Source of the DNA: Caldivirga maquilingensis IC-167
GTDB lineage: Archaea > Thermoproteota > Thermoprotei > Thermoproteales > Thermocladiaceae
Assembly (NCBI RefSeq): GCF_000018305.1
Contig: NC_009954.1
Span: forward strand, 750,001 to 782,000
Direction of reading: 5' to 3'
Length of the DNA: 32,000 nucleotides
Both the position numbers and the translations under genes were made by a program. Positions 7,908 through 30,308 of this stretch are shown here, one piece after another (the first letter of the stretch is position 1; the number at the start of each line of letters is the position of its first letter). A model generated the notes under the pieces. That model was not told where the DNA came from and did not search any database. It saw only the letters and a list, made by a program, of their open reading frames with translations.

Positions 7908-8883
7908 TAATCATTGACTCCTTAAGTCTCTTAATCTCCTCATCCCTAAGCATCTTCCTCCTCGCCCCCTCCTCAAAGAGCTTCCTCTCATAATCATTAG
8001 CCGGCTGATATTGTGGAACAGGCTGAGGCTTCCCTTTATCATCAATAGCAATGTAAGTGTAGTAGGCTGTACACACCCTCTTAACGTTACCATAGGCGTC
8101 CTCAGTGGTGACGTGTATTAAAGTCTCCAAGCTAGTCTTACCAACGTAACTTATTCCTACAGCAATCTTAACAATCTCGCCGGTTCTTATTGGTGAATAA
8201 AATACTGTATCATCAATTGACCCAGTTACCACCACTGACTTAGCGTATTCACTAGCCAGGGATGCAGCAATATTATCAATCCAGGCGAGTAATCTGCCTG
8301 CGGAAACCATGTTAGACATGAAGGCGTCCTGAGGGGTAACCCATCTGTTTGACTCAACCCTCCACCTAAGATTCTCCGTTGGATCATTAACATTATACCT
8401 CTCCTCACGCCTATTCACTATCTTACTCTTCCTAGCCTCATACCTACTCCTGGCATTATTATAAATCATTAATTCATCCGGATTAGGCTTAAGTTCATTC
8501 CTAATTAACCTAGGCTGCCCATAATCATCAACAGCAACGTATGCCGCCGTGGTCATGGTCATAATTACTTGATCACCACCATGGCGTCTAACAGCCTCAA
8601 TGTAAGTCTCCATTGATGACCTACCCACGTACTCAACCCTAGCCTTAAGTGTGATTGAATCACCAATGAAGGCTGGGGCTAGGAAGAAGTGCCTATCCAT
8701 GTAAGCCAACACGGTTGGTCCCCGGGAAAACTTAACAGTGGCCACTGTACCAACGTTAGCAATCCACTCCAGTATCCTACCACCGAATAACCTACCAATA
8801 GAATTAGCGTCAAATGGTTGAACCATTTCAAGGAGAGTAACCTCAGTATCTCTAATGCTGACCATACTTATGTAGTATTTCAT
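7900..8883 (-). CDS. acyl-CoA thioesterase with tandem hotdog domains
   Basis: Two repeats match the acyl-CoA hydrolase hotdog pattern: ...[23 protein letters not shown]... and ...[19 protein letters not shown].... A basic linker separates them. Confidence 0.8.
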
Positions 8884-8909
8884 AAGCCTTAATAAATAAT
8901 TCGCCCATT

Positions 8910-8965
8910 AAATCACGCACCGCCGCACGGGGGGCCGCCATCCTAGACCACTAGACCACGGCCGC
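8910..8965 (-). tRNA. orphan tRNA 5' piece (acceptor 5' strand + D-arm + GC-rich tail); candidate split-tRNA gene fragment
   Basis: The minus strand reads GCGGCCG UG GUCU AGUGGUCUA GGAU G, then GCGGCCCCCCGUGCGGCGGUGCGUGAUUU. No T-arm or acceptor 3' strand lies nearby on either side. A tRNA-type promoter GGAAAAGC-TAATAAA is centred about -27. Confidence 0.5.
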
Positions 8966-9074
8966 TGAATTAAGGCTGATCCCTTGGTTTATTAGCTTTT
9001 CCTCATGAATGCATTTTTCAGTTTCCCGGAATTAAAGCTTAATTAGTTAAGCTGTGCTAAAGGGAATTTAGGGA

Positions 9075-9925: not shown

Positions 9926-9985
9926 CTAAGTGATGAGACCTTAACCGAATGAGACTGGTGATTAAGAACCCATGCTTACTGATTA
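9926..9985 (+). ncRNA. candidate C/D box sRNA
   Basis: C box GTGATGA 9930-9936. 12-nt guide. D' ATGA 9949-9952. C' GTGATTA 9958-9964. 14-nt spacer. D box CTGA 9979-9982. TATA TTAATAA lies at -29..-23. The second spacer is 2 nt longer than the usual 12. Confidence 0.45.
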
Positions 9986-10839: not shown

Positions 10840-10916
10840 GCCCCGGTAGCTCAGCCTGGGAGAGCACCCGGCTGAAGACCGGGGGGTCCCGGGTTCAAGT
10901 CCCGGCCGGGGCACCA
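10840..10916 (+). tRNA. tRNA-Phe (GAA), CCA encoded
   Basis: Manual cloverleaf: GCCCCGG UA GCUC AGCCUGGGA GAGC A CCCGG CU-GAA-GA CCGGG GGGUC CCGGG UUCAAGU CCCGG CCGGGGC A CCA. Promoter GAAAAGC-ATAAAAA lies at about -30. Confidence 0.95.
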
Positions 10917-12772: not shown

Positions 12773-12860
12773 TGGTGCGGGGGGTGGGATTTGAACCCAC
12801 GCAGGCCTACGCCAACGGATCTTAAGTCCGCCCCCTTTGACCAGGCTCGGGCACCCCCGC
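12773..12860 (-). tRNA. tRNA-Leu (UAA), long variable arm, CCA encoded
   Basis: Manual cloverleaf: GCGGGGG ... GCGGA CU-UAA-GA UCCGU, 14-nt variable arm, GUGGG UUCAAAU CCCAC CCCCCGC A CCA. TATA TTAAAA lies at about -26. Confidence 0.95.
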
Positions 12861-13561: not shown

Positions 13562-13622
13562 AAAAAAGCCCTGGGTATTGGTGATCGGCGCCGTATACTT
13601 GACCGGGCTATACTACCGGGGC
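13562..13622 (-). tRNA. orphan tRNA 5' piece (acceptor 5' strand + D-arm + tail + oligo-T); candidate split-tRNA gene fragment
   Basis: The minus strand reads GCCCCGG UA GUAU AGCCCGGUCAA GUAU A, then CGGCGCCGAUCACCAAUACCCAGGGC UUUUUU. No anticodon loop or T-arm is present. Promoter GGAAAGC-TTATTTAA is centred about -27, and the unit ends in a T6 terminator. Confidence 0.5.
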
Positions 13623-15657: not shown

Positions 15658-15716
15658 TTGAGTGATGTGGATCTCGAGTCCTGAGTGAGTGAAGAAGGCT
15701 CGCATGGCTGATTTTT
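15658..15716 (+). ncRNA. candidate C/D box sRNA
   Basis: C GTGATGT 15662-15668. 12-nt guide GGATCTCGAGTC. D' CTGA 15681-15684. 4-nt loop. C' GTGAAGA 15689-15695. 12-nt guide AGGCTCGCATGG. D CTGA 15708-15711. T5 run 15712-15716. TATA GTATTAA lies at -32..-26, inside the end of hom. Confidence 0.6.
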
Positions 15717-17478: not shown

Positions 17479-17586
17479 GGGGCCGTAGTCTAGCCTGGCT
17501 AGGATGCCGGCCTGGGGGGCCACCCCCGTATTGAAATTGACCCGGTGCGCCGGTGATCCCGGGTTCAAGTCCCGGCGGCCCCACCA
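17479..17586 (+). tRNA. tRNA-Pro (GGG) with an intron of about 30 nt at the canonical 37/38 position, CCA encoded
   Basis: GGGGCCG UA GUCU AGCCUGGCUA GGAU G CCGGC CU-GGG-G [intron about 17518-17547] C GCCGG UGAUC CCGGG UUCAAGU CCCGG CGGCCCC A CCA. Promoter CAAAGC-TTAAATA lies at about -30. The exact intron borders are ambiguous within a G run. Confidence 0.9.
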
Positions 17587-18230: not shown

Positions 18231-19419
18231 GAATGTTAAGGCTCTTGTGGCTTCAAGGATTATTAGAAGCTTCTCCTTCGGGTACTTATCATTCATAATA
18301 CCTCTTTACCTGAAGTCCATAGGCTTCAACCCAGTGTTAATAGGGTTATACTTCATGATTAATGCAATCTCCTCATCACTACTAGTATTGGCGGCTGGTT
18401 TCCTAGGGGATCTTTATGGTAGGAGGGATACACTCATAGCTATGTCATCCTTATTCACAGCATCAATGCTGGTTTATAGTACTACGGTAAATAGGTTAGC
18501 GATATTCGCAACCTCAATACTAGGCACCACAGGGGGTGGTGGCCCTGGGGGAGGCGCTGGTGGTGGCCCAGTTACACCGCTTCAAACCTCATTACTAGCT
18601 GATAATACGAGTCCAGTTGAAAGAACTAGGGTTTATAGCATAACCACTGCCGCATCAACTGCATCATCACTGGCTGGTGCAGCGTCATCATACCTATTCC
18701 TCAGTATGGGTTTAGGGGACTTATTCCTATTTAGGTTATCCGCGGTGCTTAGTGCATTATCCCTACTGGTCTTATTAATGGTGAGTAGGGATAAGGGGAG
18801 GATTAGGGTTGATTCAATAAGTCAAATAATCCCAAGAAGATCAAGTGGCTCAGTGGTTAAGATTGCGATTGCCGGTTCCTTGGGTAGCCTTGGATTAGGT
18901 ATGGTTACTCCGCTTCTTCCACTCTGGTTTAAGCTTTACCTGCACGCCACTGAGCTTGACGTAAACATGATTTACATGGCATCATACTTAGTTTCAATGG
19001 TTTCCACACTGCTGGCTGATAGGGTGGAGAGAGTGATGGGTAGGGTTAAGGCTATATCAGTGCTTAGGGCTGTTTCAGTGGGCTTATTCATAGTAATGGC
19101 GGTAACACCCAGTTTAATAATAGATTCGGTACTTTACATAATTAGGGTGGCGCTTTACATGGTTACCATACCCATGAGGCAGTCCTTATCCATGGAGGTT
19201 ATAACCAGTGATGAGAGGGCTAGGGGATTATCCATAACCGGCTTAGCCAGGAGGCTACCCTATAGTTTAGGTAGTTTCATAGCTGGTGTAATGATGAATT
19301 CAGCATTATTCGCATTATCAATGATAACCGGAGGCTTAGTATCAATGCTTGATCCACTGCTTTACTACATATTCTTTAGGTCACTTGGAGTGAGGAGTAG
19401 GGATCGTGTTAATGATTAA
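18223..19419 (+). CDS. MFS transporter
   Basis: 398 aa with about 12 TM segments. The motif GFLGDLYGRRD (the D-R-x-G-R-R type loop) follows TM2. The gene overlaps the CYTH gene by 8 nt. Confidence 0.8.
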   Translation: MNRNVKALVASRIIRSFSFGYLSFIIPLYLKSIGFNPVLIGLYFMINAISSSLLVLAAGFLGDLYGRRDTLIAMSSLFTASMLVYSTTVNRLAIFATSILGTTGGGGPGGGAGGGPVTPLQTSLLADNTSPVERTRVYSITTAASTASSLAGAASSYLFLSMGLGDLFLFRLSAVLSALSLLVLLMVSRDKGRIRVDSISQIIPRRSSGSVVKIAIAGSLGSLGLGMVTPLLPLWFKLYLHATELDVNMIYMASYLVSMVSTLLADRVERVMGRVKAISVLRAVSVGLFIVMAVTPSLIIDSVLYIIRVALYMVTIPMRQSLSMEVITSDERARGLSITGLARRLPYSLGSFIAGVMMNSALFALSMITGGLVSMLDPLLYYIFFRSLGVRSRDRVND

Positions 19420-20250: not shown

Positions 20251-20306
20251 CCTAGTGATGAGCACGCTGGTATATGATGAGTGATTAGGGTCAGAGATTC
20301 TGATTA
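20251..20306 (+). ncRNA. candidate C/D box sRNA
   Basis: C GTGATGA 20255-20261. 12-nt guide GCACGCTGGTAT. D' ATGA 20274-20277. 3-nt loop. C' GTGATTA 20281-20287. 12-nt guide GGGTCAGAGATT. D CTGA 20300-20303. TATA TTAATTTA lies at -30..-23. Confidence 0.65.
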
Positions 20307-30146: not shown

Positions 30147-30308
30147 CTTTCTAATCCCTTTTGGGATTTACGATTCCCTATGGAAAACTTCATGATGAGA
30201 ATCCAGGAGCACTTTCTAATCCCTTTTGGGATTTACTCCTCGGTGGCTGCTGCAGTCTACCTTATTGCGAATAAGAAGGAGCACTTTCTAATCCCTTTTG
30301 GGATTTAC
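30147..30308 (-). CRISPR. mini-CRISPR array: 3 identical 25-nt repeats and 2 spacers
   Basis: The plus-strand repeat CTTTCTAATCCCTTTTGGGATTTAC occurs at 30147-30171, 30212-30236 and 30284-30308. Spacers are 40 and 47 nt. On the minus strand the repeat reads GTAAATCCCAAAAGGGATTAGAAAG, with the GAAAG 3' end typical of crenarchaeal repeats and an internal 6-bp hairpin AATCCC/GGGATT. The AT-rich leader lies on the 30309+ side. Confidence 0.8.

Follow-up and report, generated by a model that had tools for sequence, protein, structure and literature searches.

We analysed a stretch of 32,000 nucleotides from Caldivirga maquilingensis IC-167, referred to here as the window, and found on its minus strand a stand-alone tRNA 5′ piece that very probably (with a probability of roughly 0.93) represents the known 5′ quarter, positions 1-25, of the tri-split tRNA-Gly of this organism. 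The locus at 8965 is already known as a published case in the organism of discovery, and our result is a rediscovery. What the present analysis adds is that the block formed by the exon and its trailer was observed to be near-unchanged in at least eight other genomes or metagenomes of the Caldivirga lineage.

Anatomy of the 5′ piece

The exon runs from 8965 to 8940 on the minus strand (8940..8965) and its 26 nt correspond to tRNA-Gly positions 1-25 in the Sprinzl numbering, with a D-loop of 9 nt. The DNA of the minus strand reads GCGGCCG TG GTCT AGTGGTCTA GGAT. As RNA, the exon consists of the acceptor 5′ strand GCGGCCG (7 nt), residues U8 and G9 and a D-arm with stem GUCU/GGAU and loop AGUGGUCUA. 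The D-stem is formed by four base pairs, namely G10.U25, U11-A24, C12-G23 and U13.G22, and the 9-nt D-loop keeps the conserved residues A14, R15, GG and A21. An earlier sequence-only reading had described 8965->8940 as an acceptor 5′ strand followed by a complete D-arm, and our own reading of the sequence likewise gave Sprinzl positions 1-25. Its remark that the D-stem GUCU/GGAU is the same as that of the tRNA-Pro at 17479 was confirmed by comparison, as the D-stem of tRNA-Pro (GTCT/GGAT) is identical to that of the piece. The observation it made was accurate in all details except one, the start codon of the neighbouring thioesterase gene.

No tRNA was reported at 8965->8940 by ARAGORN, nor by Rfam even at E-values up to 10, which is expected because the piece is only ~25 nt long. 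A T-loop regular expression applied over the window recovered only the T-arms of the three intact tRNAs, with no T-arm near the piece, and one extra loose match at 575 which was judged to be spurious. Only tRNA positions 1-25 are encoded at this locus and other tRNA parts adjoin it on neither side. The claim that no further tRNA part lies nearby therefore held, with ARAGORN, Rfam and the T-loop search all empty at the site. When a loose 5′-tRNA motif with a GC-rich acceptor strand was counted, four occurrences were found in the window, whereas 100 dinucleotide shuffles gave 0.26 on average.

Identity as the tRNA-Gly 5′ quarter

According to reviews that summarize the original account, the tri-split tRNA was published in 2009 from C. 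maquilingensis IC-167 (Fujishima et al. 2009, PNAS 106:2683), an organism in which ten fragment genes give rise to six tRNAs. In these reviews, tRNA-Gly UCC and GCC are described as having a 1-25 fragment in common, with two 26-37 fragments and a 3′ half completing them; the 3′ half is shared with the split tRNA-Gly(CCC), which is composed of 1-37 and 38-73 (Fujishima et al. 2009, via reviews). The tRNA-Glu(UUC) is also described there as split at 25/26. As far as these reviews go, only Gly, Ala and Glu are listed as split in C. maquilingensis, only Gly (tri-split) and Glu(UUC) are listed as split at 25/26, and the split tRNAs are said to be made from fragments alone (Fujishima et al. 2009, via reviews). 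The endonuclease of C. maquilingensis is known from the literature to process split tRNAs.

Compared with the Gly(UCC)/(GCC) 5′ quarter of Fujishima et al. (2009), the piece at 8965 comes from the same organism and has the same 25/26 split and the same isotype signature, and in both cases one shared fragment carries a trailer and a promoter of its own, which is predicted for the piece at 8965. We base the match to the published 1-25 fragment on the organism, the position of the split, the isotype and the uniqueness of the piece rather than on published coordinates, and no demonstrable difference was found. Sequence strings of the piece gave no match in the papers searched and the supplement of Chan 2011 has nothing on Caldivirga.

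The glycine identity elements described in the literature, including those of the crenarchaeon A. pernix, are G1-C72, C2-G71, G3-C70 and (G10-Y25). Residues G1, C2, G3, G10 and U25 of the piece make up the 5′ sides of this set and all of them are present. The exon ends with the 3′ strand of the D-stem (GGAU), that is at position 25, and 25/26 is a known split and intron position. We assign the piece to the Gly 5′ quarter because the glycine identity bases are present and because the other tRNA that is split at 25/26, Glu, was placed at 13622. The same two points support the earlier reading in what it had offered as a guess, the Gly identity. Its broader proposal of a 5′ piece of a trans-spliced tRNA is likewise supported by the organism, the 1-25 split position, the promoter, the anatomy and the conservation. 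It had also drawn an analogy to the tri-split tRNA-Gly of Caldivirga, which is supported, but it did not recognize the piece as the already published case.

The D-arm, GUCUAGUGGUCUAGGAUG, is not diagnostic for Gly since it is also found in the tRNA-Asp of a fusellovirus record, and the D-stem GUCU/GGAU occurs in tRNA-Pro as well. Taken together with a partner that was not found in our scans, this would fit a split tRNA made of two pieces (1-25 + 26-73), the locus encoding the 5′ one, or a piece of an isotype other than Gly. We consider such a partner set or isotype to be quite improbable, as Gly and Glu(UUC) are the published cases at 25/26 and the Glu-like piece sits at 13622, and as G1-C2-G3 fits Gly and does not fit the GCCGCGG acceptor of the tRNA-Asp in the fusellovirus record. 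A complete tRNA-Asp(GTC) was detected by ARAGORN at the start of MK054222.1 (Sulfolobus spindle-shaped virus, record 1-223). The Caldivirga Gly piece and this tRNA-Asp have identical D-arms, which shows that the sequence is common to different isotypes in Crenarchaeota.

A second stand-alone piece, probably for tRNA-Glu

A scan of the window for 5′-tRNA-like pieces revealed another 5′ piece that stands alone, again on the minus strand. Its exon (13622->13595) reads GCCCCGG UA GUAU AGCCCGGUCAA GUAU and is preceded by the promoter GGAAAGC-TTATTTAA at about 13657-13643. The trailer, ACGGCGCCGAUCACCAAUACCCAGGGC, follows at 13594->13568 and a U6 terminator at 13567->13562, all on the same strand. 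The 25 positions of this piece were observed to match the first 25 of an intact intron-containing tRNA-Glu(CUC) from a Thermocladium MAG almost exactly, a similarity that most likely identifies the piece as the 5′ fragment published for the split tRNA-Glu(UUC). In Caldivirga sp. UBA161, conservation of the orthologous Glu piece (starting at 1991) covers the exon and the initial 18 nt of the trailer, after which the sequence has diverged. Of the ten published fragment genes, those for Gly 1-25 and Glu 1-25 would then lie 4.6 kb apart among the three intact tRNA genes.

The split tRNA-Glu(UUC) resembles the Gly piece in its promoter, 1-25 exon, trailer and U-run and in being split at 25/26. However, the acceptor and the D-arm of Glu differ (GCCCCGG UA GUAU ...), its trailer is AU-richer than that of the Gly piece and it belongs to a two-piece rather than a three-piece system. 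The idea that the piece at 8965 could be the 5′ fragment of Glu(UUC) was rejected, since the Glu(UUC) piece sits at 13622.

Promoter, trailer and transcript end

A BRE/TATA-like promoter is located at 8988..9002 on the minus strand, where it consists of GGAAAAGC (9002-8995) and TAATAAA (8994-8988). The combined element, GGAAAAGC-TAATAAA, ends about 22-23 nt upstream of G1. A like layout of a purine-rich block followed by an A/T box was observed 22-26 nt before tRNA-Phe, tRNA-Leu, tRNA-Pro and the Glu piece, in agreement with the earlier statement that the BRE/TATA layout and spacing are those of the three intact tRNAs. Among the eight other loci of the Caldivirga lineage, seven keep the promoter as GGAAAAG(C/T)TAATAAACC, and a different A/T-rich upstream element, GGTTTAAAACCCC, was found at the locus of the Thermoproteaceae MAG. 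These sequence features suggest that the piece is independently transcribed from its own predicted BRE/TATA promoter. Transcription of the split fragments is said to have been verified in the 2009 work that described them.

The exon is followed by a GC-rich trailer, or intervening sequence, of 24 nt (8939->8916, minus strand) that is conserved in relatives. It reads GGCGGCCCCCCGTGCGGCGGTGCG as DNA and GGCGGCCCCCCGUGCGGCGGUGCG as RNA. The G+C content of the trailer is 88% compared with 42% for the window, and if the tRNAs are set aside, no other short non-coding stretch of the 32 kb reaches 79% G+C. The composition scan thus agrees with the earlier description of the piece as a GC-rich island in AT-leaning intergenic DNA. 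Another GC-rich island, at 18527-18571, was rejected as an RNA piece as it lies within a 398-aa ORF, where it codes for a Gly-rich stretch. Folding of the whole 59-nt transcript alone (exon, trailer and U-rich end) gave no significant structure (z = -0.31), which fits a trailer that is free for pairing in trans, and the tail is predicted to be largely unstructured.

Directly after the trailer, the DNA reads TGATTTAAT. The U-rich stretch UGAUUUAAU in this position (8907..8915, minus strand) is a likely candidate for the transcript end, to judge by its composition. As a terminator UGAUUUAAU is weak, having only three consecutive U residues and a sequence that is not conserved among relatives. 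Further T-runs were found past it, as far as the probable TATA box of the thioesterase gene (about 8896-8887).

The downstream thioesterase shows 100% identity over 321 aa to a protein annotated as 'acyl-CoA thioesterase [Caldivirga maquilingensis]'. The database protein is 321 aa long and begins with MVSIRD and therefore the start codon is most likely at 8865, and not at 8883 as the earlier reading had it. A T-rich box, TTTATTAAGG (8885-8900, minus strand), lies ~25 nt upstream of the ATG at 8865 and is conserved among relatives. This box is probably the TATA box from which a leaderless thioesterase mRNA is transcribed. It is also located just downstream of the transcript end of the tRNA piece.

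Conservation in the Caldivirga lineage

The 50-nt block of exon and trailer was found to be highly conserved, with 48-50 of 50 positions (96-100%) identical to the window in the eight other loci of the Caldivirga lineage. In seven of these loci, the close relative UBA161 being excluded, the flanks keep only 24-32 of 58-60 positions upstream and 13-16 of 39-40 downstream, and the coding DNA of the compared lineages is 70-77% identical to the window. The exon is invariant across the eight loci except for two D-loop positions. The trailer is identical in six of the eight and the other two, of the Ga0315298 and SRR9651403 lineage, differ by C18->U only, a change that would be predicted to preserve a pair with G (G-C to G.U). 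Conservation breaks off sharply after ...GGUGCG, the end of the trailer. In the Thermoproteaceae MAG, a block of 53 nt is the only part that matches anything in the 32-kb window, and the block was also found in a different genomic context (locus L006). Judged by this comparison of the block with its diverged flanks, functional constraint is likely to act on exon and trailer alike.

The 20-mer core of the trailer matched four GTDB genomes of the Caldivirga lineage, namely Caldivirga sp. MU80, Caldivirga sp. UBA161, the MAG RSNS23 and the 'uncultured Thermoproteaceae' MAG, and all four matches are the orthologous 5′ piece in the same orientation. These four loci were selected by the trailer itself. 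Five of the eight loci were retrieved from ENA, Logan and two JGI metagenomes by means of thioesterase orthologues (86-87% identity) and not through the trailer, and the piece was present in all five. Three Logan records, SRR9435970, SRR9435971 and SRR253096, show 100% DNA identity to the window over 3.8-6.4 kb. The reviews consulted, up to 2023, name only C. maquilingensis for tri-split tRNA.

A truncated tRNA pseudogene, or half of an att site left by an integrative element, would also be short and missed by standard finders, as this piece is, and tRNA genes are targets of integrative elements in Crenarchaeota. A dead remnant of this kind is very hard to reconcile with an exon and a non-tRNA trailer that are far better conserved than the coding DNA and the flanks, with a tRNA-type promoter at the correct distance and with the occurrence of the block in the different context of L006. 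In addition, no phage or plasmid record with the piece and its trailer was found and IMG/VR holds no matching piece. We give this reading only a marginal chance of being correct. A virus or plasmid att site was rejected for the same locus as the sole virus match is the unrelated tRNA-Asp that shares the D-arm and the plasmid matches are chance matches.

When relatives were compared for an ancestral tRNA-Gly, either intact or with an intron, Vulcanisaeta and Thermocladium were found not to be syntenic. The matching intergenic region of a syntenic relative with a 72%-identical thioesterase (Logan SRR29288675, 726-834) lacks a tRNA-Gly piece and hence the location of the piece is not fixed outside the Caldivirga lineage. 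The same relative has the same downstream L18e/CobD gene order.

Search for the partner of the trailer

The sequence-only reading had proposed the reverse complement of the tail as the mark by which a partner piece could be recognized. No such match was found for continuous helices in the window, GTDB or the JGI metagenomes. In the window, exact searches, searches with up to three mismatches and RNAduplex recovered nothing but the antisense strand of the piece, and the retrieved loci contain no reverse complement of the trailer either. A scan of both strands of GTDB species genomes with the 20-mer core of the trailer brought up no copy in the reverse-complement sense. It returned four orthologous 5′ pieces and 12 chance bacterial matches, and the locus of the window itself was not among the matches.

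For the pattern searches, the partner was modelled as a complement to the trailer without its first nucleotide, followed by CCUA, which pairs with U20a-A21-G22-G23, then by two bulge nucleotides and the exon. The first G.U-tolerant pattern, a 23-nt complement with the central-helix strand YYTR (27 nt in total), gave 0 matches in the JGI metagenomes and 0 in IMG/VR. A second G.U-tolerant pattern consisted of a 14-nt complement, YYTR, 8 nt and CTKCCA, which stands for the anticodon-loop sequence CU[G/U]CCA. It gave two matches only in the JGI metagenomes, both of them chance matches in a bacterial membrane-protein gene. These searches covered continuous, mismatch-free helices (with G.U allowed) in the strict bulge-helix-bulge register. 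The JGI metagenomes include Caldivirga contigs with the piece and the negatives from this source therefore carry some weight, provided that those records are part of the scanned collection.

The lack of a simple complement argues for a leader-trailer helix that is mismatched or bulged, shorter than 14 bp, or in another register, and it does not count against the split-gene reading. It is conceivable, though we regard it as doubtful, that the scaffold of leader and trailer is bulged, mismatched or three-way, the last involving the trailer of the anticodon fragment or the leader of the 3′ half, and that the tri-split arrangement is old and stably inherited clade-wide in Caldivirga rather than a quirk of IC-167.

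A tail of 24 nt that is strictly conserved and largely unstructured by prediction, with no perfect complement detected, could also belong to an autonomous small RNA with a tRNA-like 5′ domain which is never spliced, for example an antisense regulator acting through its GC-rich tail. Such an RNA would not be expected to stop its tRNA-like part exactly at the known split and intron position 25/26, and the literature reports fragment joining and endonuclease processing in C. maquilingensis, so that we attach almost no probability to this explanation. The tri-split tRNA-Gly accordingly remains our preferred reading of the piece.

Proposed assembly of the tRNA

Under the tri-split reading, the transcript of the piece would start from its own BRE/TATA promoter and comprise the acceptor 5′ strand, the D-arm and the 24-nt GC-rich trailer. 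As described in the literature, the trailer would anneal to the complementary leader of either of two separately encoded 26-37 (anticodon) fragments, and the trailer of the 26-37 fragment would in turn anneal to the leader of the shared 3′ half (38-73). A bulge-helix-bulge motif would be formed at each junction and cut by the tRNA splicing endonuclease, after which a ligase would join the exons into the mature tRNA-Gly. For the piece at 8965, the pairing and the bulge-helix-bulge step are thus proposed from the literature and not from data on the window.

The bulge-helix-bulge motif is known from the literature as a 4-bp helix flanked by two 3-nt bulges, and it is common to split and intron-containing tRNAs. 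The central helix of a canonical pre-tRNA includes the first two bases of the anticodon. At the 25/26 junction, the central 4-bp helix would be placed on U20a-A21-G22-G23, the 5′ bulge would be made up of A24, U25 and the G after the junction, and the outer helix would start from the second nucleotide of the trailer.

In Nanoarchaeum equitans (Randau et al. 2005), the halves of split tRNAs are alike in having separate promoters, complementary trailers and leaders, shared halves that are used in combination and a relaxed bulge-helix-bulge motif that is cut by the splicing endonuclease. They differ in that two pieces are used, mostly split at 37/38, whereas the Caldivirga tRNA-Gly is made from three pieces with the first break at the junction of D-arm and anticodon stem. 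The non-canonical tRNA introns of Thermoproteales, according to reviews, resemble the intervening sequences of split genes, occur at like positions in related species and rely on the same endonuclease and motif as the split genes. In the split Gly of Caldivirga, in contrast to these introns, trailer and leader are the two parts of a divided 'intron' and are encoded at separate loci. Among tRNAs put together from separately transcribed pieces, the tri-split ones are the most extreme known and they bear on the debate over whether tRNAs arose from smaller modules or were fragmented later. The 8965 locus itself adds nothing new to this debate on tRNA origin.

Other RNA features of the window

Three intact tRNA genes are found in the window, tRNA-Phe at 10840-10913 (plus strand), tRNA-Leu at 12776-12860 (minus strand) and tRNA-Pro(GGG) at 17479-17583 (plus strand). 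The tRNA-Pro(GGG) was found by Rfam and missed by ARAGORN. Its 105 nt include an intervening sequence of ~31 nt that adjoins the anticodon loop.

Sub-threshold Rfam matches (21-25 bits) to the archaeal C/D-box sRNA families sR5, snoPyro_CD and sR24 were observed in or near intergenic DNA. These matches, at 9927-9983, 15659-15714 and 20252-20304 on the plus strand, may be C/D-box guide RNAs. In addition, three CRISPR direct repeats of 25 nt (Rfam CRISPR-DR17), spaced 65 and 72 nt apart, are located at 30147-30308 on the plus strand and this region is the start of a CRISPR array.
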